DNA of 63,384 nucleotides, the filler included, from Reclinomonas americana ATCC 50394 (Eukaryota), in NCBI GenBank assembly GCA_048213135.1. It is 3 parts of 3 records of this genome, joined end to end, with 100 filler letters (N's around TTAATTAATTAA, not from the genome) between each part and the next. Parts side by side here need not be neighbours in the genome. Positions count along the whole stretch, not along the records: positions 1 to 27,835 come from PS015177.1; positions 27,936 to 56,468 come from PS015178.1; positions 56,569 to 63,384 come from PS015179.1. The stretch is one strand, 5' to 3'. The notes under the pieces are model-generated. The model searched no databases. It was not told the DNA's origin and saw only the letters and a list, made by a program, of their open reading frames with translations. Position numbers and translations under genes: made by a program. Numbering within the stretch: position 1 is the stretch's first letter; each line of letters starts with the position of its first letter. This document shows positions 5,582 to 62,399 of this stretch, piece after piece.

Positions 5582-8500
5582 TCTCGTTCTGTGAGCAACA
5601 AGCATGCGGTGCTGGAGTTTGCGAGTCGCCCGGGAGCGGCGGGCGGAGGTTATGTGGCCACACTGACCGACTGCAACTCACGCAACGCCACCTTTGTGAA
5701 CGAGCGACGCATCTCTGGCACCTCGGCGGTCGTGCAGCATGGCGATCTGCTGCGATTTGGCTTTGATAATGGTGCGATTTGGTGGAAGAGAGAGAAAGAG
5801 AGAGAGAGAGAGAGGAGGAGAGGAACAACAACAGCAAGACAACGAGGAGGAGAAGAAGGAGAGGAACAGCCAACGAGGAGGAGAAGAAGAAGGAGGAGAA
5901 GAAGAAGAAGAGCAGCGGCAGCAACAACAAGACAACGAGAAGAGGAGAAGGAGATGGAAGAGGAGAGAGGAGGAGGAGGATAAGGATATGAAGAAGAACA
6001 AGAACAAGAAGTAGAAGAAGAAGAAGAAGAAGAGCAACAGCAAGACAACGAGGAAGAGGAGAAGGAGAACAAAAAGAGCGAATCAACACTGACAGGCACC
6101 TTCTCCACACCCTCCCTCTCTCTCCCCACCCTCATTTCCCTCTCCTCTATCTCCACCCTCCTTGCCCTCTCCCCACCCTTCTTTCCCTCTCCTCACCCCC
6201 TTTCCTCATTCCCTGCCGCATCGCAGCATCATATCGATTTGAGATGTTGCCGGGTCAACGCAGTGGCACCATCGTGGCGACTGCCGCAGCGGCCGCTCGA
6301 GGCCGCCCATCATCGGCATCCGCCTCGCGACCGGCCGTGTCGGCAGTCAACGCAGCGCTGGCGCGTGGTCGTTCGTCGCCGGTGCGTGGCGCCGGTGGAA
6401 AGAAGGCAATTGCGGCACTGGCGCGGCCGCTGATGGCGGGCGAGCCGGAGCGTGTGCACGTGGGCAAGTCGGGATCGGCTGCGGCGCGGCAGGCTGGCGA
6501 GGAGGGTGGAGTGGTGGCCGATGCGTCGTCGTCGGCGTCGGCGTCGTCGGTGCGCGATCTGCCACGCAATGTGCCGCGTGCGTCGCCGTCTCCACTCCGT
6601 CGCATGCAGGATCGCATGCAACAGCAGCAGCAACAGCAACAGCAGGAATCACAGGCCATGGCCATGGGGTCGTACGATTCATCGCCCGACGAATCCAAGC
6701 CGCCACCGATTGCGCCATTTCGACATGCAAGTTGCGCCTGTCGCAGCCGCAGTCATGCGGCGTCTCTCTCCATGCACTCATCCTTTCGCGCGACTGCAGG
6801 TCGGAGCCGCGAACCACCCGCGCACTCCATCTCCTTCCCCACAGCAGCCGGTACGTCGTACTATGCCGGCGATATGCAGGTGGTGGAGGGGCCGACGACC
6901 GTGATGAATATGCCGCCGCCTGGCGATGCGACCAGCACCGCTCCTTCCGCTCCCACCACTCCCGTCTTGGCACCAGCAACAGCACCACCTCCCGCCTCTG
7001 TCCCATTGCTCACTGATTCGGCCTACGTGGCCGGATTGCACGAGCAGAGGGCGCGGGCCGAGGCGGAGGCACGCATGCTGCGCGAGCGGGAGCTGGAGGA
7101 TTTGAGACGGCGGGCATCGCTGGCGGAGACCAAGGACACACAGATGAATATGCAGCAGCGCAAGGTGGATGAGCTGCAGGCGCGTCTCGATCGGTTGGAG
7201 AGCTCGGGGAATCTGCAGGAGGCGCTAATGGCGCCGCCGTCACCTCCACTGAGATCCATGACACCGCCACGCATGATGTCGCCGGTGTCCAAGGCAGCCA
7301 CTCCGGGTTCGGTGCCGGTGCTGATGGATCAATCCAGCATGCGCCGACTGCAGGAGGTGTGCGAGCAGGCGCACGATTTGCGTGCGCACCTGGAGCGTGT
7401 GGCGTCGCAGACGTCGGAGATTCAGCGACGCGAGCCCAGTGTGCAGAGTCGATGGTGTGTCTATGTCACTGTCCACTCGCTTGCCTGTCAAGTGTGCCAA
7501 CACTTCTCGTCCGTGCAGGTCTGATGGCAGTGGATTTGGCGGCGTTGGCGGCGGTGGTGGTGACATGGGCGAGGACGAGAATCCACTATCCATGTTGGTG
7601 GACCTGCAATCGGCGCTAACGGCGGCTCGTGATGCACTGGCCATGCAGGAGCAGGTGTGCGCGACCAGAGAGATGCACACAAAGACGTACCTGATCTCTG
7701 ACGACAAGATTTGTTGGTGCAGATGAACAAGGAGCGCGAGGCGGCGGAGGAATGGAAAAAGGCCAGTATGCGCGAGTCTGGCATTCAAGTGGACACCATG
7801 CAAGCCGATCGCAAGGCTCTGGTCGACAAGAGTCTGGCACTGCGCTCGTTCATTTCGTTGCGCACTCTCACTTTGTCTCACTATGCGTGCATGCCGCGGT
7901 CACTGACACGACTGTGCACTGCAGTGATTTGCAACGCGACAATCAGAGATTACGCGTGGATGTGTACACATTGAACAGGCAGGTGGAGGGCTTGCGACGA
8001 GACCAGTCGGCACAGCGGACCGTGGCACTGAAGAAGGCGCTGCGGAAATGTCGCAAGGAGTTGTCGATGACGGAGGCTGAGGTGAGGGTGAACGAGAGAG
8101 TGATGGAGTGGAGAGACTCGGAACTGAATGAGTTCATGCTGGCAGTTGGAAACCATTTACGGTACGATGCGGGAGGAACACGGGGAACTGAGTGTGGCGC
8201 AAGCTAAGGAGATTGCTCGCTTGCGTAAGTTGATTGAAGAGTTGGTGAGTACGCTCTTCGCCCTCCAATATTTTGGTGACCTGCGCTGCTCACACTGGCG
8301 ATGGGTGCAGGAAACACGACGCACGCGCTCCGCACGACAATGGTCACGTCTGCGTGAGGACAATGCGCGGCTCACCAGTCGAATTCAGGAAATGGAGACG
8401 GGCGTGCGGGCCCATGTACAAACGGCGGAGGCGCATGTGGCTCGTGCCGACCGCACCATTGCTCATTTGCACGCTCAGCTTGCTGATGTTGCGTCGAATG

Positions 8501-10329
8501 TGCAGTGTGTGTGGATGAATGAGTTGCTAAAGTGGAAGTGTTTCTCTGCGTGCAGATCAGCGGCTCTGGGGACGATGCGCGCATGGCAGCCGCAGAGGTT
8601 CTGGCGGAGGAACTGGACTCGCTGGTGAGTTCCTCTTCCTCTCTATTTCTTTCTTTATCTCTTGCTTTCTTTCTTCTTCCCATGTATCATTACTTTTTGC
8701 TCGCTCTCCGCGTGTCGCGTCTCTTTATCAACATGTCGCCTCCCGTGAGCCTCTCTCACTTTGCTACCGCATCAGCGCGAACAACTGAGCGACGCACACA
8801 ACATGAGATTACGGGCCGAGACCGAAGTGCAGCTGTCGGAGAGTCGCGTCCGCGAGTTGCATCACGAGCTGGAGAGTGTGCGAGGTTCGTGGCTCCCCTA
8901 TTTTCACCATTGCTCTTTGCCTTCCTCACCTCCCTTCTCGCCCGGCAGCCTCCATGCGTGCCGATCGTGTGCCCCAGCTGGAGAATCTCGTCGAGGAGCT
9001 GCGCAGCGAGGGCTCGCCCGAGCGCATCCTGGCTCTCACCGAGCAACTGAAGGCCGCCCACGCCGAAGTGGCCGATCTGCAGGGCAAGAGTGCATTCCTC
9101 ACGGGCGAGTTGAGGAGAGCGCTGGCTCGCGAGAGTGGCAACATGGAGACGGACGAGCCGTTTGAGCTGCTGTGCCGCGTGGTGTCGGAGCAGGAGCAGC
9201 AGATCCGCCGACTCAACAACACGATCAAGACACTGCAGAACCGGCGGCAGGACTGGGCGCAAGAGCTCTCCATTGGTCGCACACCGGATGGCGAATTCTT
9301 TTCGTCTTCGGGCGCGAACGCGGCCCTTACGCCACTGACGGGCGCCGACGGCTCCGGCAGTGGCAGTGGCAGTGGCAGCGGGAGTTTGCGACCACGCTCG
9401 GCCTCGGCGCCGCGCTCGCGTTCCACGTCGCCCACGTCGTCGTCGGTGCTCGGTCCGCCCTCTGGAGCCATGATGCGGCATCAGGTACTGCGAGGGCGCG
9501 TGCACCATTATTTTCATTCTTTTTGTTTGTGCTCACCACCGTTGCACCACAGCGAGAACGATCGTCGTCGCGTGCGCAAACCGTGTCACAGCTGCTCGCC
9601 TCGTCGCAGTACAAGCCACGCCCCGGTTCACCCCCCGGCCTGCCGCCGTTTGCTCGCAGCGGCATTCCGACCCGCATGCGCGGTCGCGGAAACGGCAAGA
9701 GTCCGCTGGACGACATTTTGGAGTCGTACGGCACCACGTCGGTCGAGCCGGAGGCCGGTGCGGTGAACGGCGGTCGTGCGGGAGGTGGCGGCAGGAGTAG
9801 TGGCAAGCCAGCGTGGGCAGCCGGCAGTGGTGGCGCCGACGAGGACGCACGGGGAGTCGGCGAGGACCGTGTGGTCGACTCGGACGATGAGTTTGACGAT
9901 GTCGACGGCGACGACGCCATGTCGGAGACCGACCGGCAACACCTGCTGCACTCGCTCGGCGTACTGCCTTCGCAGTCGGGCAAGCCAGCCAGCAGCACGC
10001 TGCCACGGTGGCGATCGAATGCAAAGAGCGACAGCCTCGGAGGCACGACAGCAGCAGCAGGAGGAGGTGGAGGCAAGGGCGGACAGCGTGAGCTCGACGG
10101 ATTCAGCGTCGACTACGAGGACGACGACGACGAGGGCGGTGGCGAAATGGCGCGACCGTCGCTGGGCACAATCACCGGTGCAGTGTCGGTGCCGTCGCTC
10201 AGACCACCACCATCGCTCGGCGCCACGTTGACTGGCGGACCCTCAGCACCACCACCCGCTGTGTCAGGCACCCGTGTGAACACTGCTCGTCCGGCCTCGC
10301 AGAGAACGGCGTGGGTCGACGATCTGTGA
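5582..10329 (+). CDS. FHA-domain, long coiled-coil, low-complexity protein (FHAD1-like architecture); first exon not located
   Basis: FHA motifs SRSVSNKHAVLEF...LTDCNSRNATFVNERRI...GDLLRFG (5582-5771), followed by in-phase GT-AG exons with heptad-rich sequence; ends WVDDL* at 10329. Confidence 0.8.
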
Positions 10330-10410
10330 GCAACGAGTGAAAACGGCGATTGTACTCTACGTCCTCTGTCATACACACGCACACGCTGACACACGACACT
10401 CAAGGCAGCA

Positions 10411-12219: not shown

Positions 12220-15200
12220 ATGTCGGGCGATAGTGTGCACGTCGCTGTGCGTGTGCGCCCTTTCAATGAGCGTGAGATCAACATGGGAGTTGCGTCTCTT
12301 ACACACACACACTCACACACATACACACACACGCGGACACGAAAGAGAAAAGAGTGAGTGAGTGGCGCGTGTCTGCTCACTAGGTTGACATCGCACACAC
12401 ACACACTCTCTCCTCCTTTCTCTCTCTCTCTCACANNNNNNNNNNNNNNNNNNNNAGGAGGAGGAGGAGGAGAAGGAGGAGGAAGGAGAGAGGCTGTGAG
12501 GAGATAGAGAAGGAGAGGAAGACAAGGAGAAGAAGAAGAAGAGGAGGAAGAGGAGGAGGAGGAAGAGGAAGGAGAGAGAGGCTGCGAGGGCAGGAGAGCG
12601 AGGCAAAGGAGAGCTCTGTGAGGGCAGAAGAGATGGGGTGTTGAAGACAGGAAGGAGAAGAGCTGAGAGAGGTAGAGCGTTACCTGGGTTGTCGGGGTTG
12701 AAAATGCGCGTGGTGACACCATCGGAGGGCATCTCGATGCACAAGTGAGCCTGCGGAAGCGATAAGAGAGAAAACATGAGTGAGTGTGATTGTTGGACAA
12801 CACAATGAGTTGTCGGTTGATGATTGTGAATGACTTTGACTTGGAAAGTGAGTGTGCGTGTGTGTGACTGAGTGTGTGTGTGNNNNNNNNNNNNNNNNNN
12901 NNNNNNNNNNNNNNNNNNNNNNNNNNNNNNNNNNNNNNNNNNNNNNNNNNNNNNNNNNNNNNNNNNNNNNNNNNNNNNNNNNNNNNNNNNNNNNNNNNNN
13001 NNNNNNNNNNNNNNNNNNNNNNNNNNNNNNNNNNNNNNNNNNNNNNNNNNNNNNNNNNNNNNNNNNNNNNNNNNNNNNNNNNNNNNNNNNNNNNNNNNNN
13101 NNNNNNNNNNNNNNNNNNNNNNNNNNNNNNNNNNNNNNNNNNNNNNNNNNNNNNNNNNNNNNNNNNNNNNNNNNNNNNNNNNNNNNNNNNNNNNNNNNNN
13201 NNNNNNNNNNNNNNNNNNNNNNNNNNNNNNNNNNNNNNNNNNNNNNNNNNNNNNNNNNNNNNNNNNNNNNNNNNNNNNNNNNNNNNNNNNNNNNNNNNNN
13301 NNNNNNNNNNNNNNNNNNNNNNNNNNNNNNNNNNNNNNNNNNNNNNNNNNNNNNNNNNNNNNNNNNNNNNNNNNNNNNNNNNNNNNNNNNNNNNNNNNNN
13401 NNNNNNNNNNNNNNNNNNNNNNNNNNNNNNNNNNNNNNNNNNNNNNNNNNNNNNNNNNNNNNNNNNNNNNNNNNNNNNNNNNNNNNNNNNNNNNNNNNNN
13501 NNNNNNNNNNNNNNNNNNNNNNNNNNNNNNNNNNNNNNNNNNNNNNNNNNNNNNNNNNNNNNNNNNNNNNNNNNNNNNNNNNNNNNNNNNNNNNNNNNNN
13601 NNNNNNNNNNNNNNNNNNNNNNNNNNNNNNNNNNNNNNNNNNNNNNNNNNNNNNNNNNNNNNNNNNNNNNNNNNNNNNNNNNNNNNNNNNNNNNNNNNNN
13701 NNNNNNNNNNNNNNNNNNNNNNNNNNNNNNNNNNNNNNNNNNNNNNNNNNNNNNNNNNNNNNNNNNNNNNNNNNNNNNNNNNNNNNNNNNNNNNNNNNNN
13801 NNNNNNNNNNNNNNNNNNNNNNNNNNNNNNNNNNNNNNNNNNNNNNNNNNNNNNNNNNNNNNNNNNNNNNNNNNNCTCCTTCTCTTCCTCCTCCTCCTCA
13901 TCTTCCTCTTCTTCTTCTCCTTGTCCTCCTCCTCTTCCTTCTCCTCCTTCTCCTCCTCCTCCTCCATCTCCTCTCTCCCTCCTCACCCTGCCTTCCTATC
14001 CCGTTCTCACTCCCTCGTGCCTCCAGAGGAACCACCTCGCAGCTTTGTGTTTGACCACTCGTACTGGAGCCACGATCCGGCGAGCGGGGCGTTTGCCAAC
14101 CAAGACAAGGTCTTCAACGATCTCGGAACGCTGGTGCTCGATAATGCCGTCGCCGGCTTCAACAGCTCGTTGTTTGCCTATGGGCAGGTGCGTGTAAGTG
14201 GGGAAAGAGAGACTGTTGCCTTGTCGTGATGTGCTCACTGGTTGTTGTTGTTGTTGTTGTAGACTGGCTCTGGCAAGTCGTACAGTATGGTCGGCTACGG
14301 TCCCGATCGTGGTATCATTCCGAGGGTTCGTCTTTGTGTATGTAAGCGATGTGTGACTTGCCTGTCGCTGATGATTTGGTGCGTGATCAGGCGTGCGAGG
14401 ATCTCTTCCGACGCATCAACGCCAACGGGAACCCCAACCTCGATTTCCGAGTCGGTTTGTGCATGTGTGCTGCACTTTGTTTTCCACCTCTCCTCTCACC
14501 CATCCATCCCCCACCAGAATGCTCCATGATGGAAATCTACAATGAGCAATGTCGCGATCTGCTCGACCCCTCAGCAAAGAAGGTATTGCAGACACAACCA
14601 TTGTCTTCACGCCAGCAAATCACTCACTTGTCTGCACGCAGGGCGCCCTCCGTGTGCGTGAGCACCCCAAGACCGGCCCCTACGTTGCGTCCGTCTTTTT
14701 TCCTTCTTCCTCCAGCTGTTCACTCACGTTCCCCTTTTTCCTCGTCTAGGTGGAGGACCTGTCATTGCTGCTCGTCGAAGACTACCAGCAAATCGAGCGT
14801 GCCATGGAGGAGGGCTCCAAGGCCCGTACCATTGGCTCCACCAACATGAACAAGACCTCGTCGCGTGCGCACACCCTCTTCCAGATCATCTTCACGGTGA
14901 CGGAGACGGATCCGGTGGTGAAGAAGTCACACAACACAGTCTCCAAGATCAACCTGGTCGATCTGGCCGGTAGTGAGCGTGCCAACGCCACCGGCGCCAC
15001 GGGCGATCGTTTGAAGGTTCCTTCGCCAAGCATTCCGTCTGTACAAGCAATCGTGGCACTCATCATTCTCTTCTCTCTCTCTCTCTTCCCTCTCCTCCCT
15101 CTCCTCCCTCTCCTCCCTCTCCTCCCTCTCCTCCCTCNNNNNNNNNNNNNNNNNNNNNNNNNNNNNNNNNNNNNNNNNNNNNNNNNNNNNNNNNNNNNNN

Positions 15201-18200
15201 NNNNNNNNNNNNNNNNNNNNNNNNNNNNNNNNNNNNNNNNNNNNNNNNNNNNNNNNNNNNNNNNNNNNNNNNNNNNNNNNNNNNNNNNNNNNNNNNNNNN
15301 NNNNNNNNNNNNNNNNNNNNNNNNNNNNNNNNNNNNNNNNNNNNNNNNNNNNNNNNNNNNNNNNNNNNNNNNNNNNNNNNNNNNNNNNNNNNNNNNNNNN
15401 NNNNNNNNNNNNNNNNNNNNNNNNNNNNNNNNNNNNNNNNNNNNNNNNNNNNNNNNNNNNNNNNNNNNNNNNNNNNNNNNNNNNNNNNNNNNNNNNNNNN
15501 NNNNNNNNNNNNNNNNNNNNNNNNNNNNNNNNNNNNNNNNNNNNNNNNNNNNNNNNNNNNNNNNNNNNNNNNNNNNNNNNNNNNNNNNNNNNNNNNNNNN
15601 NNNNNNNNNNNNNNNNNNNNNNNNNNNNNNNNNNNNNNNNNNNNNNNNNNCCTCTTCCTCTTCCCTCTTCCTCTTCCCTCTTCCCTCTTCCCTCTTCCCT
15701 CTTCCCTCTTCCCTCTTCCCTCTCCCCTCTCCCTCTCCCTCTCCCTTTCTCCTCACAGGAAGGATGCGCCATTAACCAGTCGCTCACCAGTCTCGGTAAG
15801 GTCATTCACGCTCTGGCCGAGAAGGCCAACGGCAAGGGCAAGGTTCGCACGCCTTTTTCCCTTCCTCCTTTCCTCCTTTCCACCTCCTTCTCACCCCCCC
15901 CCCTCTTCCTCACACAGGTGGTAGTGCCGTACCGTGAGTCGGTGCTGACGTGGCTGCTGAAGGAGTCGCTCGGCGGTAACGCGCGTACCATTATGATTGC
16001 TGCGCTGTCGCCCGCCTCGGTCAACTACGACGAGACGCTGTCGACGCTGCGCTACGCCAACTCGGCCAAGCAGATTCGCAACTGCGCCGTCAAGAACGAG
16101 GACCCGCAAGCCAAGCTCATTCGCGAGCTGCGCGAGGAAATTGACCGCCTCAAGGCTCAGCTCGGCAGTTCGTAACACCTCTTCTTCTCTTTTATTTTTC
16201 GACCCTCCAGCTCAATGCACCCGTCTTTAGCAGGTGGCGCAAGCGGCGGTGCGAGTTCGTCGAGCGGCAGCGGTGGAGCTCCTGACGAGGTCAATGCTCT
16301 GCGCGACCAGCTGTTGCAGTCGGAGAAGATTATTGAGCAGCTGCGCATGACCACGGACGAGCGCCGTGCTCTGACTCACGCCATCAACAACAACCGTGAG
16401 CAGCAGTTTGCCGAGGTGCGTCTGAACGGAGTTGATGGCATGCGAGAGATAATAGCATGTCTCACAGCGTGATTTGTTTTTCTCGATCACAGGCTGGTCT
16501 GCTGTCGCTGGGCGGCGACCCGAAGACCACGCCGCACCTCGTCAACCTGAACGAGGACCCGCTGATGTCGGAGAGTCTGATTTACTTTATCAAGGAATCC
16601 GGTGCCACGGTGATTGGCAAGAAGACTGAGGTAAGTCGCTCAATACTTTTGTTCTTCACAGTTTTGAGATGATGCTAATCAAGTTGCCTTCTTCTCGCAG
16701 GCTTCGATGGTCGACATTGAGCTCAGCGGCGTGTCCATTAGCGCGCAGCACTGTCAGATTGTGTCCGAGGAGGGCGAGTGCTACATTGAGGCGCTGACCT
16801 CCGAGGAAAAGTACAAGACATTTGTCAACGGCAAGCGTGTGGAGCAGCGCACTCCCATTACGCAGGTACGTCGTCGTGCTCGCTCTGTGCGTGTCTCTGA
16901 AGTGCATGTGCACTCACGGTGGTGGGAGTGAACAGGGCACGCGTATCATTATCGGTACCAACCACGTGTTCCGCTTCAACCATCCGGTGCACGCGGCGCG
17001 TTTGAAGGCCGAGCGCGAGGCACGCGGTGGCGAGGAGGCTGCCAAGGAGCCGGAGACGTTTGACTGGGACTACGCGCAAAAGGTCTGTTCTGCAGCTCTT
17101 GCTCGCCATGTGAAGGTTATGTGTGTGGCTCACTGGGCGGTCTGGTGACCTCCGTGTACAGGAATTGCTGAAGGAGCAAGGTTTCGTCGATCCCGAGGAG
17201 CTGCAGCGCCAGATCATGGAGGAGAAGGAGAAGGCGCGTCATGCTCTCGAGGAGGAGATGAAACGCAAGCTGCAGCAGCAGGAGGCCGAGATGAAGATCA
17301 AGGAGGATGAGATGCGCAAGGCGTTTGAGGCCGAGATGGCGAACAAGGCCAACTCGCAAGAGGAGCTGGTTCGATGACGCGAGAAACGCTCCGTGTATTT
17401 TCCCGTCGTTGTTGCTAACACCGCCCAATACAACACACAGAACAAGCTCGAGGAGCAATTCAAGCGCCAGCAAAAGGAGCTGGAGGAGAAGAACCGCAAG
17501 CTGGAAGAGGACTTGAAGAACCAGCAAGTTACACAGATGCGCATTGAGGAGCAGAAGGCGCAGGAGAAGATGGAGCGCACGCGCGCCGAGGAGAAGCTGC
17601 TCAAGGTTTGCGTCGAGAGAGCGTCCCCTCGCTCTTCTCCGATTCGGAGTTCTTACGTGACTCGCCACAGCTCATCCCGTTGGTGCAAACGGCCAATGCG
17701 TGGGCCGAGGAACTGCGCCGACCGGTGCGCTTCGAGACGCGCATGAAGGCCAATGCCGAGAGCATTGCTGGCGGCTCGCTGGCTGGCGGCTTCACGTTTG
17801 GCCGACGAGTGCGTCCTGAATGAGTTGTTTTTGTGTTGCCTCGTCTTCATTCGCTAACTGGTGCGTGTGTGTCTGCAGGCGGAAGTGTGCGTCGACGTGC
17901 ACAAGCTGTGGTGCGACAACGTGGCCACCTGGGCATACGACAAGTTCGAGAACCGCTACTACCTCATGCAGCAGACCTACGAAGCCGTGACCGAGGCCAT
18001 TCGCAACGGCACGCCATACAACCTGCCGCTGGCCGAGGACCCGTTCTACGACCCGCCTGAGCATCAGGTCATTGGCACGGCCATGGTGTACCTGCGCTTT
18101 GTGGCGCACAATATGGACATTTCGGAGACGTACCCACTCATTCAGGGCACGAAGGACAAGGGCACGCTGTCTGTGGAAATGTTGCGTCTCCACTCTCCTC

Positions 18201-41591: not shown

Positions 41592-41616
41592 TCATCTCGC
41601 TCGACGGTCGGCTGCC

Positions 41617-51008: not shown

Positions 51009-51087
<79 letters not shown>

Positions 51088-51489
51088 TCTTCCTCTCTTC
51101 CTCTCTCCAGTGAGTCACGCAACGCTACTTGGCCAACGGCGAACTTGCGCGCGTGGTCCACTTGCGGTCGCGCACTCAACATCACACCGCGGAATTGCTC
51201 TAAGAGAGAGAACAAGAGAGAGAACAAGAGAGAAACAGAGAGAGATAAACGTCAGTCATGACACTCTCTCTCAAACACAGAGGAGAGACAGCACCATCTC
51301 GGCCTCCGCCTGCGCCGCTTCCGCCTCCGCCTCCGCTGTAGTGTGCGCCAGCAGGTCGCTCAGAGATGAGAAGTTCTTGCATTTCCTCTGCGCGTGCTCT
51401 TTCAACTGCAATCACAATTGATTGGTTGGTATGGGCTGTGGAATCGCCCAACAGTGGCGTGTGTCGAGGTCGACGATGAGCGCGCGCAA
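48929..51489 (-). CDS. Coiled-coil protein of unknown function; 5' end uncertain
   Basis: In-phase exons: HRKYLKEL, KPAWAMT, DLVEFAKGLDYDKFIADLEV, MRQVHSKASV, ending VQNLPYLYRCPAI*. Confidence 0.7.
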
Positions 51490-51867
51490 CTACAGCGCAC
51501 TGTGAGTGAGAGAGTAGAGTGTGTGTGTGAGAGAGAGGGAGAGAGACGCAAAGAAGGAAAAGTGTGAGAAGAGAGAGAGATGAAAGTGTTTGAGGAAGTG
51601 AGAGAGAGAGAGTGTGTGTGTGTGTCTGTGTCTGTGTCTGTGTGTGAGAGAGCGAGCGCGAGAGCGATTGCGAGTGAAGAGCGCGTTCAAGTGCGAAGAG
51701 TGCGATCGGTCACTGTTTGAGTCTTTCTCTCTCCTCTCTGTCATTGTCTTTCTCTCTCTGTGTGTCTCTCTCTCTCGTCTTCTTGCCTCTTCGCTTATGA
51801 GTGTGTATTCGATCGGCAGTTGTCTCTTGTCGCACTGATCGATGCTTATTTTGACTCGTCTGCTTAG

Positions 51868-54800
51868 GCACCTGACGAAGAAGCAGGTCAGTGCTGCTTC
51901 TGCTGCGGTCGCTCACGTGCCCAGTGGTGGAGGAGGAGCAGTTGCGCTTCTGACTGTGCGCGGTTGTCTCTTTGTTTCACTCTAACTTCTGTGCTCAGTC
52001 TGCGAGGACCGTGTCGGCCGCACCGATGCCTTCACCGTCGTTTGCGGTGGCGCCTGCACGCGATCCGGAGGAGATGGAGCGACGGCTGAAGCAGATTCGA
52101 CGGGAGAATCGCATGCGTATGAAGAAACAGGTGGAGCAGCAGCGGAAAGACGAGGAGGCGGCGGAGACGAAACGACAGGTGTGGCGCACAGGGGTGCTGA
52201 CTGGATCGTTGGTGATTGATGTTGAAAAGGACTGTCTCACAGCACATCCTCGAGGAACGGCGACGCAAGTTGTTGGCGCAGCGTGAGGAGGCCAGGAAAG
52301 CTGTGCAGGCGGGGAATGCGACGAGCAATCTGGTGTTGTTGCGCATGCATCGGTTTCCGCACGAGACTGACGACGGTGGCGACGTGGCGGTGCCGGTAAG
52401 AGGTCGCTCGGCGAGTGATGACGGTTATGGTGATGATGATGATGATGATGGAGCGGCGTCGTTTGATGGAGCTGGCGTGGGGCCGAGCAGTGGGTCGGGA
52501 CTGGCGGCGGCTCGGCAGAGATTAGAGATGCGCAAGTCGCGCGAGTTGTTGGACTCGTTAGATCTGTCGTCGTCGCTCACCAACTCCATGTCGGAGTTCC
52601 TGGTGGCTGAGCGGCTAGCCGGGCAAATGACGCGCACGGCCGACAAGGAAGCGCTGTCGCTCAGTCCGAAGAACACGACACCGTCACGAAATCGAAGTGG
52701 TACGTGGTGTGATGATGATTGCAGAGGGAAGTTGCTGATCATTTTTCGCCTGCTGCTGCAGTGTCGCCGGCGGCTGGCCGTGCACGACAGGGAACCTTGG
52801 TGCCAGCCGTGGCACCGGGTCTGAGACCACTGCTGGTGTTGGATCCCTCCAAGCGAGTGAGGTCTTTCTCATCTGCCTGTGCGCGCGTTGGTGTGCCTTA
52901 TTGCTCATTCACTGGCGACATTTTGCAGGGATCCGAGTCGGCGCGTGCATTTTTCTGATACCGAAGATGACGATGCCGATGACGACGATGATGATGAGGA
53001 CAGTGACGATGGAGGAGGTGCTCGGGGTGTGCCACCACCTGTGCGTGCAGTGACACCCACCACGGGGGCCGATAGAAGAGGACGTGGCCCTGTACGGGGA
53101 GTTGGTGTTGTTGCTGCTGCTGGTGCTCCTGCTGCTGCAAGTGGTGCAGAAGGGCCGCAAGGCAAACCACCTCAGGGACGAAGTCGATTCGTTGCGCACT
53201 CGTCCCATCCGTCACAGATAAAAGAAGAGTCATTGCGCTGATGTGTGCTGGTTGTTGTGCAGGCGACTCTGTCTGTGGAGGAACGGAGATTACTGGCCAG
53301 CTTGGCGCGTCTGGATGCCATGTTGGACACGAAGCGAAGGACGGGTCTCATTGGTAGGCTTTTCGCTGCTTGTGTCGATCAAATGGATGTGCATTCTCAC
53401 CGCCGCACCCGGACAGCGTGTGTCACCGAAGCAGAAGCGGCGGCGGCAGCAGCAGCGTCAGGGGAAGAGGGCGATGGTGATGCAGAAAGGCCAGCCGGTC
53501 CACGGAGGAGGCGACCTGTGGTTGTTGATGGCACCATTCGCCTCTTGCCTGTCACTGGTGGTACCGTGAGTGGTGCAAGTGCAGGTGGTCCGTCGGCGGC
53601 GACTGCCACGGCCACGCGGCCACTGGCGAAAAAGAAACGTGTGATTGCAGGACGAGGTAATGTCGCTACGCGCAATGCTGTGTGTGAGACGAGTGCCTGA
53701 CGGAATACGCGCGTGCAGCGGTGTATGGTGGTGCCCCGGGAGCAGTGGCTGTTCCTGACGCTGTGGACGACGAACCGAGCAAGTACTCGCCCAAGATGGT
53801 TCCTCGCGACTGGATGCCGCAAGAGAAACCACGAGCTGTGGCGCCACCACCGCCACCACCATCAATACCGCAGCCACAGGTGGTAGAACGGCACATGGAG
53901 CCACGCGAGATGGCTGTGACGCCTCCAACACGGACGCGACAGGCCAATCAGGTGTTTGGAGCGCTGGCTGTGGTGCGCCTCTATTGTGAATGTTGTGTCA
54001 GCGGCGTGCGTGTGTGAAGCTGATTGTCTGTGGCAGGACATGAAAATGGGAGTGGGTATGGGCACCTTGGGGGCGACACCAACAATGGTACAGCATCATC
54101 CAGTCGGTCTCCCGATGTCGAGTGTACACAATTCTCAACTTGTTTTGTGTGCACAGGAGCGAAGAGTTGGGGGCGGTACGAACGGACTGGCTATTGTGGT
54201 GTGTGTTGGCAATTGCATGCTTCACTTGCATCGACTTTGTCTCACTCTCGTTGTGCAGGATGAGAGGAGGGCGGCCGGTGCTGGAGTCGCCATGGTGTGT
54301 GTTGAACTGCCTGCTTGATTTGTGTGCGTGTATCAGTGCTCACTCCATCGCGCAGGATGGGAGAAACGGAGGCGGAATGGGAGCGACGGCTGTGATGGTG
54401 AGTGACAGCCGCTGGGACTCTCTCTCTTCTGCGCAACCATTCCCGCCCACACAGTGCCTCGCAGACTCGACCACCATTACAATCACGACCACCCATGACC
54501 GGTGCATTCACAGCTGGAGATGCGCAGGTTCGTATGATCTCTCTTTCCATCACTCGTGGTGTCACAACTGATCCCTCTGTCTGCAGCCGCAGGTGGTGTC
54601 GAGACCAGTACACGAAACATCAGTGCGTTTGGAGTGCGGCGATTGTTAATTAACACTTTCCCGTGAGCTCATCGCATGCCTCACGCAGGTACGATCGAGA
54701 GATCCGTCGCCCCGCACAAAGCTGCAGGCACCATCGCCATCTGCGACCGTGACCAGTACAGTTGCGTCCGATTGCATGCCAGTGTGTGAGTAACAGGCAG

Positions 54801-55359
54801 GGTCTCACCCGGTGCATGCTAGGTTCCGACGCTGCCACCAGTCGGGCGTCCCACGTCGCGTGATCCGTCGCCGATGCAGCAACTGAGAGTTGTGTGGGGT
54901 GACGACATGATGATGACGTGATTCCTTCGCTCACCCGATGCGTACAGCCTGTGGCGGAGCATTCACGTGCCGCCAATCCTCCCCGAGCACGGGAACCATC
55001 ACCCTCGAACCAGCAGCGAGCGGCAGCGGTGCGTACACGCCACATAGCTTCGTGAGAGCAGCAGGTGTGTGTGCTCATTGTAGAGGGTGCAGCCGTCCAT
55101 GATTCCACGGCCACTGCCTGTGCGCACCACCAGTTATGTGGTGAACCGACAGGCCGCGCCGCCGCGAATGCGCGTCCTCAGTGCCGAGAGTCAGCGACAC
55201 GAAGCGTCACTGACGGGCGGTGGTGGCGGAGCAGCACCGGCGGCGCCAGCCGCAGCACCGGCCCGATTGCGCGAGAGCTCCGACTCGCAAGTGTCGTCCG
55301 TGGAAGACGAATCCGATCGCATCGTGCAGACCTCGCACACCTACTTGTTATTCCAATGA
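51868..55359 (+). CDS. Large low-complexity/coiled-coil protein of unknown function; start and some exons uncertain
   Basis: Chain of GT-AG bounded exons (EEMERRLKQIRRENRMRMKKQ; LSVEERRLLASLARLDAML; Pro-rich region) ending HTYLLFQ*. Confidence 0.6.
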
Positions 55360-55519
55360 TACATATGTTACTTGTTACGAATGTGTGTTGTTCATCTTCA
55401 TTTCGCCCGGCGCGGGGGAAGGGCAGAGGGGCACTCACACCACCACCCCCCAACAAAAGCATATCGCGGCACTATACATACAATAACAGCAACTGAGAAG
55501 GAAAAATGGTGTGGAGCGC

Positions 55520-56906
55520 TCAGTCGTCCTGGCGCTTGTGAATCCACTTGGTGGTTTCCGACACAATGCCGGGATTGGAGAAACCGGTGGGAATGCTTTG
55601 CGTGCCGCCAAAGTGCCGCTGATTGCTGGTGATGAAGCGGGTGGAGTCCGATCGACTGCCGTCCTTGATGCTGCGAAGGGGGAGGCAAGGGTAAGGGAAG
55701 GGGAAGGGAGGAGAAGGGGGAGGGAAGGGGAAGGGGAATGGAGGAGAAGGGGAAGGGGAGGGGAAGGTAAAGGGTGAGCTGCGTGAGGAACGAAGAGCAG
55801 ATGGAGGGAGGAGAGGAAATCTCAGTCACACGGGAATGAGTGTGCAGCGGCAGAGCGACGAACCCCTATACAGAGAGGGGGTAAAGTACGAGGAGCGAGA
55901 AGCGAGAGAGGGAGCAGAATGTACGCGACAAGGAGGAGGTGAACTTTCTGTTGTGGAGGACAGCGTGCAGAGTGAGCAACAGAGAGACGGAAACTGAGCC
56001 GCAATTGAGAGACGATGCAACGGCAAGGACAGAAAACGAAGTACGACAAGGAGACGCTGCTGCGGAGGACAGCGTGCCAAGTGAGCAACAGAGAGACAAG
56101 GACGATGAAACAGAAGTACAATGACTGAGACGGCAGCACGGCAATGAGAGATGAAAGGCCTCGTGACGAGAGCGGTGCGGCTTCGACCTGAGTGAAAACA
56201 TAGCAGCAGAACAGTCCCTTTCCTCGTTCCCTCTCTCTCTCTCTCGTCACTCAACTTGAATTGCGTGACATTCCGTGGCTGACAGAAGCGCTCTCCGGCC
56301 TTGGCCTCGTTGGGGAACTTGACGGGCAAGCGCGAGCGGATGGCGTTGGGTGAGTACGGCACCAGGTGCTTCTCCGACGGATCGATTTGTGGCGAGGCGT
56401 AAGCTGGAGGCGAAAAGAGAGAGAGAGAGGAGACGTGAGAGGGACGCAGAGGGGAAAGAGGAAGGGAGNNNNNNNNNNNNNNNNNNNNNNNNNNNNNNNN
56501 NNNNNNNNNNNNTTAATTAATTAANNNNNNNNNNNNNNNNNNNNNNNNNNNNNNNNNNNNNNNNNNNNGAGAGAGAGAGAGACGCAAGCAATCAAAGGCA
56601 CTGACGCAATCGCACACACAGAGATGCAGTGAGAAAGGCACAATGAGCGCAACTCTTCTTGTTAGTGGTCTCCGACTCGAGCTTTGCAGTGGGCGTCACT
56701 GAAAGAGAGAGAGAGGCAGGCACGCGTGTTAATTAATCAATAGTACAACACTCCTTCTCAGTCTTCTCTCTCTTCTTCTCTCTCTCTCTCTTTCTATTAC
56801 GCTCACCATGCTTGGGCACTGGGTGTGAGACCGCAAACACCTCGCCATTGCGACGAATCACTCCGCGAGAGCTCGTCGTTGTCTTGGAGGTCTCTGCCTT
56901 GCTCAT
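55520..56906 (-). CDS. Small 4-exon protein of unknown function, possibly axonemal; spans the linker gap
   Basis: MSKAETSK...PKH|VTPTAKLESETTNKK|TYASPQ...PYSPNAIRSRLP...QF|NIKDG...NPGIVSETTKWIHKRQDD*; exon phases match across the gap at 56469-56568. Confidence 0.7.
56513..56524. other. Artificial six-frame-stop linker TTAATTAATTAA inside a 100-nt gap
   Basis: Same structure as 27880-27891. Confidence 0.95.
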
Positions 56907-57342
56907 TCTTTCCACTGCACACACACACACACACACACAGACAAGTGAGCACACACACACACACACACACACGCACTCACTCTCAATCACAACTCGTGCT
57001 GCACACCTTTCTCCGCGAGTTTATGAGTTGCGAAAAACGGCTGCTTCCGATTGGTTCACATGGAACGGTCAATTTCCTTCACTCTCAATGAGACGACTAC
57101 TTTGTAAAGGCAAGACGGAAGGAAGATGCGAAAATGGAGAAAAAAAGAGGAAGATACAGAGAGAGCACGAGAGAAGACAGGTGCTTCTCTCTCTTTTGTG
57201 GGTTGGTTGTTGGTGGTTTGATCACTGATCGACTTCGCGCGTCACTCGTGATTGGCCCTGGTCTCGTCGGAAGGTCAGCGTCTCGGCTGGCGCCTCCACG
57301 CGACGCGTTCGTGGTGAGGTGGGTCGACCCTGCAGCACACGA

Positions 57343-60300
57343 TCAGCGACTCTTCACGACATACAAGGCGCGTGAGAGCGCAACTGCAGCAGCGGCGGCG
57401 GCGTCTTGCGCTTCGGTGGTGACTGGCGGTGATCGGAACGGCGATGCACCGAGACGGAAGAGTGTGCTGGTGCCGCGCAGCACGAGTGCACGCACGCACT
57501 GCTTGATGTCTTCCTTGGTGAAGCGCGAGTGCGAGCTGTTGCCCAGCAGCTGGCGCATGCGTGCTGTTGAGTCGTCGAGGTCCCTCTCCACATCCTCGGC
57601 CGTCACCGACTGGCCGTGATTCCGTCGCAAATGGCGCACAAAGTGTCGCAGCTCATCGCGCTCCAAATACATGTTCTCTGCGAGATGGCAACAGCGTCAG
57701 CCGCCATCGTCAACCCCAGCATACGCGAGCGGGCACGAAACTGTTGATATCGTACACGTCGAAAATGTAATTCAGTCTCCTGTCGCCCGTGATCTCGTCG
57801 ACCGCGTGCTCCGTCATCGGATCCATCGCCACCAAGCCGAGCAGGAACTCGCCGAAGCGAATGCGATTGGTGGCCAGCACATCGAATGCAGAAAAGTACT
57901 GCACGGAGTCAGTGAGCAACGATGGAAAGATCATCTGTACCATCAACCACCACAGCTGCGCAGACCTGTCGGCAGTACTTGGACTGCAGTCCGAGAGGAA
58001 CCATGGTGGCCGTGAAACCCTGCAGGTCCATGGTTGGCTCCTGACCAGGCACCACTTGCACGCCGCGCATAAATAGTGCGCGAGCCTGATGACACAACGG
58101 ATGAGCTCCGCACAGGCAACACGACATATTCGCTCACAAGTGCACACACACACCTCGTCAATGCGCGCCACAGTCGTGCCCGCAGCTGCCAGGAACTGCA
58201 AATTCTCCTCCATCGACTCGGGCGGGAAGCCAACTGCGCTCACCGCGTCGAACAATTCTTGCTCTTGAGGCGTGCGCGATCCCATCGGGTGACTGCGTGC
58301 ACACAGTCGCGGTGAATTCCAGGCAATATCAAGAAGCTGTGACGCACAATGTACACACCTGCCCGGAGCGTCAACGCTCATTGGCACAACTGTGCTCCGG
58401 CCCTGCATCACAAAAACAACAACAAGTGAGTCTGGCGACGATCCCATTCCCCGAAACAACACCCAACGCAACGGCTCCCTTCATCGACGCCATGGCTACC
58501 GGCTCGTCTGGCTCCGCCATGCGGCCACGCGGTGGGGTTGGCGGTCGCTTGTTTGACGCCTCCGACCACAGTGCCTGAGCAACTTCGAACGGCTTGGCGC
58601 GAATGACTTTTTGTCGGACCTGTGGTCGCGAGAGGGTGCGTGAGATGAGGAATGGATGTGGAAGTGACGCAATCACTCCCTCACCTTAATATCACGTCCG
58701 TGCGATTCCAGTGACACCTCACAGATTGCGCCGTCATTGTCGTACTTGCCGCAGTAGTTTGTCGCCGAGAAAATTGTGATCAAGTGACCATCGGCAAAGA
58801 ACTCGTAGCCACCTTTCGGAAAGATCAGCAACTCACCAAACACTCACGAGAAACACCAATCGAGCACTGACCATCAACGCATTCGTGTGCACGCAGGATA
58901 ATGTCAAGGTCGTTGCTCTGGCAGAACGCCTTGACACGATCGGGGCTGCGCACACAACATGTCAGCAAACAGGAAGATGGCGAGAAACAGAGGTCGAGTA
59001 AACCAACCCGAATGCGACAATGTTTTCGCCTCGATTGTTGGGATGCACGCCGAGGACGCGATCGTGCTCTGTGCACATGCGAATGAGCGAAACCCCAGAG
59101 TGGATACATGTGGATGAAGGAACGCACGGGTCGGATCACTCCACAGCGCATCCATGACGATCCGATCGTGCTCGGTGGCGATTGTGTCGGGAACATGCAC
59201 CGGTTTTTGGATGGCCTGCAGCTGGGAGATGAGGTTGATGGACGAGCCAATGCCGCCATGAATGCACAGGATGCGATCCTCGAGTCTGACAGCGAGTGAG
59301 TCTCACAAGTGCGCTGACTATCGACTCTCTTCCAGGCACACAGACCTGCACGCCAGAGGGAGGAAATCAAAGGCATCGTTGATGGCTTCCCACGCACGAT
59401 GCCCGTCGTCCTCGCCAAGTCTTTCCAGGCACTCGTCGCGGAAACCAAACTCCTCGTTCAGGTAGCGATCCTCGTGGTTGCCGCGGACCAAGCAAATGCG
59501 CTCCTGGTAGCGCAGCTTGAGCGAGAAGAGCAGCGACACGACCTCCAGCGAGTAGCGCCCTCGGTCGACAAAGTCGCCGATAAACACATAGTTGACAAAG
59601 CGAATGTCGCCAGTGCGGTGATTGGGCGAGCCGTAGGTTTGGAAAAACTCCAGCAGATCCAAAAACTGACCGTGGATGTCGCCAAACACCTGCCCGGACA
59701 ATGGGAGAGCAAAGTGAGGAGAGAGCGTGAAGATGTCTGCTGAGTGAGTGTGAACAAGACCTTGGCCGGTGCGGGCATTTCGTACACAGTTGGCTCGGTG
59801 CGCAGCATCGCTTGCACCTCCTCGGCCAGGGTCACCAATTCGGTGGCGTTGATCACATCAAAGAACCGATCCTCCGGCTCCTTCCATCGCTCGAACAGCA
59901 GCTGATCAATGACGGCTTCGGCGATACTCATGCCTGTATAAAATGATACAGGTGAGGAAGCAGGCGACCTCGCACGGGGGGAAAGAAATGGAACGCACCA
60001 GTCGGGCCAGTCGGGTTGCCGGCACCGGTGGGCGTGCTGATCAGCGACGGGGCGATTTCCGACACGCGGTTGAACACGGCACCGTCGTGCAATCGCAGCC
60101 GCACTTGTCCGTCCTTGGCCATGACGACCTGCAAGCGAGGAGTGAGAAGAACAGATAAAGACAAACACTCTCTTTTCCCGAGAGAGAGAGAGAGAAGAGA
60201 TGCTCGTGTCGCGCGCCGCACCTTGGGGAACAACTGTACACGACGGCCGGTCTTGTCGACAGCTCCGCGCTCCAGCGAGCGACGCATGCTCGTCATGGCC

Positions 60301-62399
60301 TCCATAGGCGACGGCGGACCGTGCCGTGCGGCATCGGCGGGTGGCGCACTGGCAGACGCACTGCCGGGGCCGGTGGGCGACGTGACGAGATCGCGCATGG
60401 ACGACGGCAGACGGAAGAGCGACGAGGTGCCGGGGAACTTCAGGCTGCGCACGGCCTTCTTGAACTGCTCCACGTCGTAGGTGCCGTCGGGGCTGCTCGA
60501 CGAGGCCACGGCGGTGCGGGCCTCCGAGGCCACCACCTTCGGAGAGGTCTCCTCACCACGCGCACGACGAATGTGACGAATGAGGTTGACGAGTTCCTCA
60601 AACTCCAGCTTGCCGTCGCCCTGCGGTGGGGTGTAAGAGAGACGGGAGAAGAGAGGCAAAGAGGGATGTGCCGCAACATTGATGTCGTAGACTTTGAAAA
60701 TGTACTCGATGCGCGCATCGCTCATGTCCTCGTCGCTGTGCTCGGCAGTTGCGGGGTCGAGGGCGCACAGACCTGATTCGAGGGGATGAGAATGAGGGGT
60801 GGGAAGGGAGGGAAGGGAGGGAGGAGACAAGGATGGACGCACCGAGCAGGAACTCTCGAGCGTCGATGGCACTGCGCGGAGGTGAACAAGCGGGTGTTAG
60901 CGAAAGGGAGAAAGGGATGGGGGGCGATTGTCACACAAGGAGCGATGCGAGCGAGATGGAGCGATGCGCGTGTATCAAGTGTGTGTGGGCGTGAGAGAGA
61001 GAGAGAAAGAAGGAGGAGTGAGCGCTTGCTGCTGCGAGCGAGATGGAGCGATGTGCGCGTATCAGGTGTGTGTGGGCGTGAGAGAGAGAGAGAGAGAGAA
61101 AGAAGGAGGAGTGAGCGCTTGCTGCTGCGAGTCGATGAGAGACACAGCAATGTGCGTGTACCAAGTGTGTGTGTGGGCGTGAAAGAAAGAGAGAGAAAGA
61201 GAGAGGAAGAAGGAGGAGTGAGCGCTTGTTGTTGCGAGACGTTGAGAGACACAGCAATGTGCGTGTATCAACTGTGTGTGTGCGTGAGAGAAAGAGAGAG
61301 AGAGAGAAGAGAGAGAAAGAGAGAGAGAGAAGGAAGAGGAGGCGAGGAGGAGGAGCGAGCGTGCAATACAATGATCCTCTGGCGAACCGATAGGAGGCAC
61401 ATCGCTGTACGTGTGTTGGTGTGAGAGAGAAAGAGTGAGGAAGAGGGAGATGAAGAGAGTGAGCGCTTGTTGTGCAATCGATGAGAGAGACATACACGAG
61501 GCGGAATGGTGTTGGTGTGAGAGAGAAAGAGTGAGAAAGAGGGAGTGAGCGCTTTTTGTACAATCCATGAGAGACATAACGATGCGTGCATCAAGTGCGC
61601 GTGAGCGTGAGATGGAGAATAGAGAAGGAGTGAGCGCTTGTTGTACAAGTATGCTCTGGCAGCACGATGAGAGACATACTATCACGTGGGATGTGTAGAC
61701 TTGAATGTCAGTGGGTGTGTGACAGAGAAGAGAAGAAGAGTAAGCGAGAGAGAGAGAGACAAGGAAAGAAAAGGAGAGGGGTGAAGGAGAACAAGCCAGG
61801 ATACCAGCAGGCAGAATGTGTGAATGTGCGTGAAGAGACAAGCGAGAGCGACCAAGTTGCATTGAAGCAACTCAATCACTCTCTCCCACTTCCCTCTCAT
61901 TCTCACGCCTTCACAACTCACCCACTGTTGTCCTTGTCAAACGCCGCAAAGTACTACGCACACACAAACAAGCACAAAAGAAACAAACAAACAGGTCAGC
62001 CGCATGCGCACATAACAACAATTGAACTCAAATGACACAGAGAGAAGGCGACGACTCAACTCGACGACAATAGGTGCTGGGCACACCCCAACTCGTCATG
62101 AGACGCGTGAACTGTTCCAGAGTCATTTGTGGGGAGCCCCCGCAAAACTCTTGAAACACGCTGTGAACACACACACAAGCACAAGCACACAGACAGACAA
62201 AGAGTGAGTTCAGCAGACGACCATCACATCCGCGTGCGAGAGAGAGTGAGAGCAGGGAGACAAGAGCGTGCGTGTGTGTGTGGACATGGTGTGATCGAGA
62301 GATGGCGCGCACACCGTTGTGTGAACTCGAGTTGCTTGACATCGAGTGCGGTGGGGTCGGTGTCGGCCAGACTGGGGTCGCTGCCACTGCCCGATGCCA
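57343..62399 (-). CDS. PPP-family Ser/Thr phosphatase with EF-hand modules on both sides of the catalytic domain (EFPP/PPKL-related)
   Basis: [43 protein letters not shown]-hands FDKDNSGAIDAREF and [14 protein letters not shown]. Confidence 0.9.
60950..61680. repeat. Intronic ~90-120-bp degenerate tandem repeat in the phosphatase gene
   Basis: gagtgagcgctt at ~61017, 61109, 61216, 61457, 61543 and 61629, separated by GA/GT tracts. Confidence 0.8.

Follow-up and report, generated by a model that had tools for sequence, protein, structure and literature searches.

Roca and Krainer are said to have described, in 2009, a shifted (+1) register of U1 at atypical human 5' splice sites. In that register the ordinary consensus comes after the intron's GU one base further along than usual, and cleavage still takes place at the GU; the first G of the intron replaces the last G of the exon, and the exon need not end in G. 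Here we analysed a 63,384-base stretch of eukaryotic nuclear DNA from Reclinomonas americana ATCC 50394 (the window; ~57% G+C outside 16 runs of N), in which many introns start in a way that resembles this human case. These donors read GTTGCG or GTTGAG (class B) and stand next to ordinary donors of the G/GTGCGT type (class A; a slash marks the exon-intron boundary throughout). Class B is a predicted second donor motif, sharply defined as H/GTTGCG(T/C) and used by about one intron in six. At the level of DNA letters, the evidence below shows that the cut falls before the GT of GTTGCG and that the class is abundant, on exons without a final G.

The closest described systems differ from this locus in several respects. 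Human curated non-canonical registers together make up 4270 sites, or 2.1% of 5' splice sites (Tan et al. 2016, PMC4856993), whereas here one hexamer is the commonest donor, with the class taking 14–18% of introns. Human shifted sites pair well with standard U1 through AAGUAU, whereas class B forms almost no duplex with it. Exon-side and intron-side 5' splice-site strength are known to compensate each other in a 'seesaw' (PMC11732430): a G at -1 and intron-side strength are anti-correlated, and where the -1 G is missing the intron motif has to be strict. Class B resembles such donors but reads GUUGCG, with C instead of the near-universal +5 G, and fits only when read one base along. Ostreococcus donors read GTGCGTG (Irimia & Roy 2008, PMC2483917), and the ordinary donors of the window, GTGCGT-like with C at +4, are as in Mastigamoeba, Mamiellales and Thecamonas (Roy & Bowser 2022, bioRxiv 10.1101/2022.06.08.495308). 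The papers on those +4-pyrimidine lineages describe one consensus per genome, whereas two donor motifs occur here, and the terms GUUG, 'shifted' and 'register' are absent from the text of the 2022 preprint. No GTTGCG donor class was found in the literature searched, with most subscription journals and bioRxiv supplements lying outside the search. The shifted register, the seesaw and GTGCGT-type donors are known; what is notable here is the abundance of the class and its lack of both -1 G and +5 G.

Evidence that the sites are donors

Introns were placed by two routes and one descriptive one. A spliced protein-to-DNA aligner, which knows only GT/GC...AG and has no donor matrix, was run with fetched homologues. 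A Viterbi parser combined a three-periodic coding model with acceptor and branch matrices and a length prior; its intron model was trained without the first 8 intron bases, and its sole donor rule was GT (the GT-only parse). Self-trained for three rounds on both strands, it called 250 introns, 109 of which passed a strict filter, with both flanking exons scoring at least 4 and beating the opposite strand ('accepted' below). A donor-aware re-parse used the motif itself, and its counts are descriptive. The homology-fixed set comprises 34 ordinary and 6 GTTG[CA]G donors and includes rows of low support (17083, 5/14 homologues; 60842, 4/16; 18181, 3/14; 60677, 5/16; 62060, 2/16). Coordinates of minus-strand sites give the G of GT.

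An earlier note on this DNA had proposed about 30 such donors, and sites added to its 30 coordinates are marked 'unlisted'. Six class B donors were fixed by homology or Pfam continuity; their introns have GT...AG ends, and removing them restores frame and homology. They form the first six rows here, followed by two donors with weaker support:

14684-14749, plus strand: intron tac/GTTGCGTC, kinesin-3 motor domain; 3/3 homologues; GT-only parse
18181-18251, plus strand: intron aat/GTTGCGTC, kinesin-3; 3/14 homologues, rivals 1 each; GT-only parse, accepted
28109-28173, plus strand: intron gac/GTTGCGTT, PrpD-like gene; Pfam MmgE_PrpD_C continuity; GT-only parse, accepted
37115-37189, plus strand: intron gac/GTTGCGTC, unlisted, calpain; 12/18 homologues; donor-aware parse, misplaced at 37133 by the GT-only parse
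60621-60677, minus strand: intron aat/GTTGCGGC, EF-hand PPP phosphatase; 5/16 homologues, rivals 1 each; GT-only parse, accepted
61954-62060, minus strand: intron cga/GTTGAGTC, EF-hand PPP phosphatase; 2/16 homologues; donor from the GT-only parse, acceptor from the donor-aware parse
39454-39514, minus strand: intron act/GTTGCGTC, M48 peptidase, after a 29-nucleotide (nt) exon; Peptidase_M48 arithmetic; GT-only parse
44783-44861, minus strand: intron cat/GTTGCGTC, BTB/BACK protein; weak BACK profile; donor-aware parse only

For the kinesin motor domain, the alignments of three diverse homologues have five introns in common, including tac/GTTGCG at 14684, and in the calpain gene 19 introns were each chosen by at least 7 of 18 homologues, 37115 among them. 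For the PrpD gene, positions 50-99 of MmgE_PrpD_C lie in the exon ending at 28108; the exon that begins at 28174 takes up the profile again with its residue 3 at position 102, and removal of 28109-28173 therefore leaves it exactly continuous. This agrees with the cut that the earlier note had placed at 28109; at 41168 and 50162, where it had also seen alternative cuts, the GT-only parse chose both of its positions exactly, and only 50162 passes the strict filter. At 39514 in the M48 gene, Peptidase_M48 continues in the next exon from position 68, an open reading frame (ORF) match covers 45-99, and the 10 residues of the 29-nt exon are exactly the 10 profile positions missing between its neighbour exons. 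That exon (39515-39543, minus strand; IMEADDEIA plus a split codon) stands directly before the HEIGH zinc motif of the M48 gene and is flanked by the donors gat/GTTGTGTT (39614) and act/GTTGCGTC (39514). The 179-residue M48 ORF had no match in a representative protein search, and a PDB search was not informative. At 44861, a BACK profile match (68-100, E 0.17) reaches residue 44/45 before the donor.

On the strand given, the motif is present at each of the 30 listed coordinates (28 GTTGCG, and GTTGAG at 56255 and 62060), and the base before it is A, C or T in every case, as the earlier note had described; its single G exception near 39819 was likewise recovered, as GTTGAG on the minus strand. 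The GT-only parse chose 25 of these 30 donors exactly, 15 of which also pass the strict filter, and did not choose 8488, 46021, 53191, 44861 and 58472. GTTGCG is its commonest donor hexamer, in 34 of 250 introns or 13.5 times its share of GT sites. Taken with GTTGAG it accounts for 37 of the 250, where the two together make up 1.28% of GT sites (binomial p 1.7e-27), and for 21 of the 109 filtered introns. The donor-aware re-parse returned 39 of the 40 homology-fixed donors, 29 of the 30 listed ones (not 53191) and 14 further class B donors, the class making up 43 of its 234 introns. In both parses the class is a major one, as the earlier note had proposed.

The motif is also more frequent than composition predicts: GTTGCG occurs 76 times on the two strands of the window, compared with 53.2 +/- 6.95 in 100 dinucleotide shuffles, none of which reached 76. 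The base before these copies is T in 26, C in 24, A in 20 and G in 6. The GT-only parse used 34 of the 76 as donors, and among one-letter neighbours used GTTTCG 4/23, GTTGAG 3/21, GTTGTG 4/57 and GTAGCG 1/15, with no use at all of GTCGCG (0/58), GTGGCG (0/94), GTTGCC (0/36) or GTTGCT (0/64); where GTTGCG was followed by A, it was a donor in 0 of 10 copies. In strand-assigned regions the sense-strand copies comprise 34 donors, 7 'exonic' and 4 'intronic' ones, and two of the exonic (37115 and 58472) and three of the intronic copies are probably true donors. Antisense exonic copies number 17, and the scarcity of sense exonic copies (7 versus 17) suggests selection against accidental GTTGCG donors in exons.

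Exon ends, shifted pattern and intron type

By comparing the last exon base between the classes, we found G in 1 of 37 class B introns versus 119 of 213 others in the GT-only parse (Fisher 8.7e-11), and in 0 of 21 versus 63 of 88 after filtering (Fisher 4.6e-10). The homology-fixed set gave 31 of 34 ordinary donors versus 0 of 6 GTTG[CA]G donors (Fisher 2.2e-5), and a hand count limited to junctions with Pfam support, or with half or more of the homologues behind them, gave 27/30 versus 0/3. There is strong support for a loss of the usual preference for G. GTTGCG is absent from the 120 donors that follow G (0/120), where we would expect only two or three by our own estimate, and G precedes only 15% of all GTTG copies to begin with, so that active avoidance of G before class B is weakly supported and a conditional need is favoured over avoidance. 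Where the last exon base is not G and the donor is not class B, the intron mostly starts with a perfect GTGCGT or GTGAGT: G-ended exons tolerate many intron starts, and other exons need the perfect ordinary motif or GTTGCG. The context dependence proposed in the earlier note holds in that class B accompanies exon ends other than G; the rule behind it is not new, being the known seesaw (PMC11732430). Lacking both -1 G and +5 G, class B breaks the usual compensation rule of that source unless it is read one base along.

Ordinary donors read (A/C)AG/GT[G>A,T,C][C>T,A]GT and class B reads H/GTTGCG[T>C>G]. Counted from the last exon G, the ordinary donor is G-G-T-G-C-G-T, and class B from its first base is G-T-T-G-C-G-T, with the second letter alone differing; the motif is what the consensus of the species becomes when moved by one base, and the place of the -1 G is taken by the first G of the intron (GTTGCGT versus G/GTGCGT). 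Positions +4 to +7 of class B are G, C, G and T>C>G, and so are +3 to +6 of the homology-fixed ordinary donors; the last of these letters is T29 C12 G3 A0 at class B +7 and T20 C7 G5 A2 at ordinary +6. A bulged register (bulge at +2/+3, -1 G kept) does not fit, with -1 G in 1 of 37.

Two other donors show related spacing. At 17606-17670 (plus strand, 8/14 homologues) aag/GTTTGCGT has the GCGT block two bases along, after G, and at 36792-36875 (plus strand, 14/18 homologues) gag/GTAGCGTC has it one base along with A at +3, after G. These may be further spacing variants or starts tolerated after a -1 G.

In all other signals class B introns match the rest. Their median length is 65.5 nt versus 67.5 nt, acceptor and composition are the same, and phases are similar. 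Among short introns, the branch motif CT[ACG]A[CT] is present in 24 of the 32 of class B and in 158 of the 190 others, at a median of 19 nt from the 3' end in both; the class B versions (CTCAC, CTCAT, CTGAC) are those of other introns, and a pyrimidine stands at acceptor position -3 in 31 of 32. Class B introns are thus predicted to be of the ordinary U2 type, GT-AG introns ~65 nt long whose branch site reads CTSAY. The U12-type consensus has the donor RTATCCTT and the branch site TCCTTAAC; U12-type identity was rejected on the GTTGCG donor and on branch motifs that are as in other introns.

Two readings would make the class something other than a donor type of its own. One is a gene-model artefact, with many listed GTTGCG copies not true donors and the real cuts at nearby in-frame GTs, which we consider very improbable. 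Decoy dinucleotides gave 63–98 accepted 'introns' versus 109 for GT, a test that failed as a null for intron presence; with decoys nearly equal to GT in yield, the parser finds introns and fixes donor positions loosely. To this add the five of 30 listed donors that the GT-only parse did not choose and its first round, which, of the 20 introns that homology had fixed by that stage, recovered 15 and misplaced five. An artefact nevertheless has to contend with the six sites fixed by homology or profile, and random misplacement would give GTTGCG at ~1%, not 14%; moreover, several misplaced GT-only calls lay a few bases from an in-frame class B GT (37115, 49772, 44861). The other reading is an introner origin, in which one inserted element would have brought the GTTGCG start into any exon context. 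This would account for independence from the exon end, and introner families are known in Micromonas (PMC3879977). However, no class B-class B pair was present among 883 BLAST pairs of window introns (E below 1e-3), and length, branch site and composition are the same as in class A. The 25 BLAST pairs listed involved three of the longest class A introns, and the rest were assumed to be low-complexity likewise. Introner origin is largely refuted within the window, and we hold it to be the least credible of the readings discussed here.

Recognition of class B donors

As a whole, the best explanation, which we rate at about even chances, is that the U2-type class B introns are recognized through the shifted pattern, with U1 probably changed. 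Early 5' splice-site recognition would read G-N-T-G-C-G-T in both classes. At ordinary donors the first G of the pattern would be the last exon base (G/GTGCGT), and at class B donors the intron would supply it, with T at the place of the ordinary +1 G (/GTTGCGT). Since the only GT available in class B lies one base upstream in the pattern, cleavage would be displaced by one base relative to recognition, and an exon whose coding sequence cannot end in G could still offer the pattern. The reading RNA would most likely be U1, its 5' end probably carrying G for pseudouridine at position 5 (ACGUAC or ACGCAC replacing ACUUAC). We infer a changed U1 because ordinary donors prefer C at +4, and because class B is strict about GCG and finds no pairing with standard U1. 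A broader proposal, in which recognition and cut registers are uncoupled as a routine genome-wide mode, a G5 U1 reading G-N-U-G-C-G-U and the catalytic spliceosome taking whatever GU is present, is tentative and on balance doubtful.

Duplexes were computed with the U1 5' end as printed in PMC4856993, the canonical form being ACUUACCUG. With a hypothetical U1 carrying G5, the +1-shifted register alone is minimum-energy for 36 of 43 class B donors (mean -4.66 kcal/mol), and with G5 plus C6 for 37 of 43 (-6.54 kcal/mol). Changed U1 ends are described elsewhere: Mastigamoeba has U1 ACGUAC with GUGCGC donors, and Entamoeba has U1 ACAAAC (bioRxiv 10.1101/2022.06.08.495308). At +4 the 34 homology-fixed ordinary donors have C18 T8 A6 G2. 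This preference for C is the opposite of what pairing with canonical U1 (ACUUAC) would give, and is seen at 14188-17670 (plus strand), 33298-36792 (plus strand) and 58813-60842 (minus strand). Within the window, Rfam gave no match at gathering scores and nine weak ones at E up to 1, none of them a small nuclear RNA (snRNA), and motif look-ups for U1-like 5' ends returned only reverse complements of donors.

A number of results weigh against shifted-pattern recognition by U1. With canonical U1, the mean best duplex in any register is -5.94 kcal/mol for ordinary donors, -2.53 for random GT sites and -1.41 for class B (-1.2 to -1.4 across two computations), and the +1 register is best for 18 of 43 class B donors, with a mean of -1.23 kcal/mol. 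As class B pairs with canonical U1 below random GT sites, mammalian-style shifted pairing with a standard U1 is no explanation, and the shifted or bulged pairing of mammalian type invoked in the earlier note finds no support in that form. Among 16 U1 variants at positions 5 and 6, none separates class B from background (best z 0.52). Thecamonas and Micromonas prefer C at +4 and keep a standard U1 (bioRxiv 10.1101/2022.06.08.495308), so +4 C is no proof of a changed U1. A simple shift of class A should make GTTGAGT, GTTTCGT and GTTGTGT commoner, and shifted-type GTT-NN-GT donors beyond GTTGCG and GTTGAG amount to 5 of 129 (background 1%, p 0.011); H/GTGCGT, expected to pair at least as well, is used less (7 donors). 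In the conserved eIF-1A exon at 2149-2307 (minus strand), sense copies t/GTTGCGTA (2296) and a/GTTGCGAA (2218) are both unspliced, and the first of these indicates that the motif is not sufficient for a donor. On the exon side, class B -2 (A16 C13 G10 T5) resembles ordinary -3 (A29 C30 G20 T8; p 0.93) and does not differ significantly from ordinary -2 either (p 0.13), and there is a difference between class B -1 and ordinary -2 (p 0.011); exon-side letters are compatible with the shift and cannot separate shifted from unshifted reading. The recognition step itself is read from DNA letters alone.

Two other ways of reading class B rank behind the shifted register with a probably changed U1. Next in order comes a dedicated variant snRNA, a second U1 or another RNA with the 5' end ACGCAAC, which would read class B unshifted while the main U1 serves class A. 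Near-perfect pairing of this kind would give the strictness of class B at +3 to +6, the complements of the two consensus heptamers differ by one letter, and Physarum is said to have standard and modified U1 variants (bioRxiv 10.1101/2022.06.08.495308). We nonetheless think it unlikely: an unshifted register expects a helpful last-exon G, found in only 1 of 37, and class B is the same as class A in every other signal. Ranked third, and somewhat less probable again, is a class that is strong on the intron side, a counterpart of NN//GURAG read by U6/U5 or a protein, for which the likeness to a shift would be coincidental. Like NN//GURAG, class B sits on non-G exon ends, and its pairing with standard U1 is negligible; but five out of five variable letters match the shifted consensus, which by our own estimate has a chance of ~1 in 1000 per register. 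The base at +5, too, is C in 41 of 44 class B donors. A conserved +5 G pairs with the ACAGA box of U6, and class B, with C there, lacks this pair in the normal register. Membership in NN//GURAG itself (+3 R, +4 A, +5 G) was rejected, class B having T at +3, G at +4 and, in 41 of 44, C at +5.

Further sites, surrounding genes and meaning

The remaining class B sites are given here by strand, as introns unless another term is used:

6731-6799, plus strand: caa/GTTGCGCC, unlisted; GT-only parse, accepted
7857-7924, plus strand: ttc/GTTGCGCA, unlisted; GT-only parse, accepted
8488-8555, plus strand: gat/GTTGCGTC; donor-aware parse only, the GT-only parse took 8507
12289-12457, plus strand: donor gga/GTTGCGTC after the first kinesin exon; GT-only parse, not accepted; acceptor uncertain (N run 12436-12455)
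20576-20638, plus strand: tgt/GTTGCGTG, unlisted; GT-only parse, not accepted
40871-40943, plus strand: caa/GTTGCGGT; GT-only parse, accepted
41082-41146, plus strand: cgc/GTTGCGTG; GT-only parse, not accepted
41168-41234, plus strand: gct/GTTGCGTT; GT-only parse, not accepted
46021-46086, plus strand: atc/GTTGCGTG; first-round GT-only and donor-aware parses, the final GT-only parse took 46026
47184-47256, plus strand: cac/GTTGCGTT; GT-only parse, accepted
47853-47912, plus strand: tga/GTTGCGCT; GT-only parse, not accepted; low-scoring flanking exons
47957-48029, plus strand: tcc/GTTGCGTG; GT-only parse, not accepted
48198-48265, plus strand: cac/GTTGCGCC; GT-only parse, accepted
48425-48489, plus strand: aca/GTTGCGTA; GT-only parse, accepted
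51941-52006, plus strand: gca/GTTGCGCT; GT-only parse, accepted
53191-53196, plus strand: candidate donor ttc/GTTGCGCA, a listed GTTGCG chosen by neither parse; inside an intron called from 53183 or 53202
54761-54822, plus strand: aca/GTTGCGTC, unlisted; GT-only parse, not accepted
58403-58472, minus strand: gcc/GTTGCGTT; donor-aware parse only
57330-57384, minus strand: gca/GTTGCGCT, unlisted; GT-only parse, accepted
56404-56653, minus strand: donor aga/GTTGCGCT; GT-only parse, accepted; intron across N runs, acceptor uncertain
56125-56255, minus strand: caa/GTTGAGTG; GT-only parse, not accepted
51436-51490, minus strand: gta/GTTGCGCG, unlisted; GT-only parse, not accepted
50692-50878, minus strand: donor agt/GTTGCGTC; GT-only parse, accepted; 187-nt intron, acceptor less sure
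50093-50162, minus strand: agt/GTTGCGTC; GT-only parse, accepted
49542-49772, minus strand: tcc/GTTGCGTG, unlisted; donor-aware parse, the GT-only parse took an in-frame GT 6 nt upstream
49359-49428, minus strand: act/GTTGCGTC, unlisted; GT-only parse, accepted
42564-42624, minus strand: gcc/GTTGCGTG; GT-only parse, accepted
41764-41824, minus strand: cac/GTTGCGCA, unlisted; GT-only parse, accepted
39750-39819, minus strand: GTTGAG after G, cgg/GTTGAGTA, the sole G exception; GT-only parse, not accepted
39253-39317, minus strand: cga/GTTGCGCA, unlisted; GT-only parse, not accepted
39176-39242, minus strand: gat/GTTGCGGC, unlisted; GT-only parse, not accepted
27171-27266, minus strand: gct/GTTGCGTT; GT-only parse, not accepted
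26457-26520, minus strand: gaa/GTTGCGCG; GT-only parse, accepted
23785-23856, minus strand: tat/GTTGCGTC; GT-only parse, accepted
23371-23430, minus strand: gct/GTTGCGTA, unlisted; GT-only parse, accepted
22287-22346, minus strand: ctc/GTTGCGTT; GT-only parse, accepted

Near the donor at 12289, most kinesin homologue alignments end at 12276-12288. The kinesin-3 gene is broken by N runs at 12883-13875 and 15138-15650; five of the 16 N runs in the window are 800–1000 bases long, and several genes are broken. By Pfam, the window holds eIF-1A, an FHA protein, kinesin-3, a PrpD-like gene and DUF2465, together with calpain, an M48 peptidase, a BTB/BACK protein and a PPP phosphatase, laid out in many small exons with introns of ~55–110 nt between them. 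Protein searches with kinesin-3, calpain and the phosphatase gave a best identity of at most 68% and no self match, with the best named matches scattered over Monosiga, dinoflagellates, ciliates, stramenopiles and animals; a close relative thus appears to be absent from the protein collections searched. The phosphatase (57700-62160, minus strand) has EF-hand-type homology upstream and is most similar, at 68% identity or less, to EF-hand or Kelch PPP phosphatases from dinoflagellates, Chromera and Monosiga. Long exons at 42625-43287 (minus strand), 46089-46646 (plus strand) and 9553-10326 (plus strand) encode E/D-rich acidic or Gly/Ala/Ser-rich low-complexity protein without a Pfam match. The commonest hexamers of the window are (GA)n and (TG)n microsatellites. 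At 4115-4358, on both strands, sub-threshold Rfam matches to MIR533, Hsp83 3' untranslated region, MIR2118 and MIR408 cluster far under gathering scores, and are probably a low-complexity or repeat artefact.

For genome annotation, gene finders with a single donor matrix will misplace about one donor in six here, and our own GT-only parser misplaced 37115, 44861 and 49772. So far, shifted and bulged registers have been known from a small minority of human sites, mostly through minigene work. In a genome where a shifted-looking donor is more common than any other donor hexamer, natural test cases would number in the hundreds to thousands, and they would bear on the relation of U1 recognition to the final choice of cut, on the limits of the seesaw and on the co-evolution of U1 with donor motifs. 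If the organism's U1 proved to be standard, the class would be more difficult to account for and of greater interest, as neither a -1 G nor a +5 G is present in class B. If the broader proposal of uncoupled registers is true, this would be the first organism with shifted-register splicing as a major class: about one intron in six would be spliced one base upstream of the recognised frame, exon ends would be freed from G, and R. americana would offer a natural setting in which to study how U1 passes the 5' splice site on to U6/U5.

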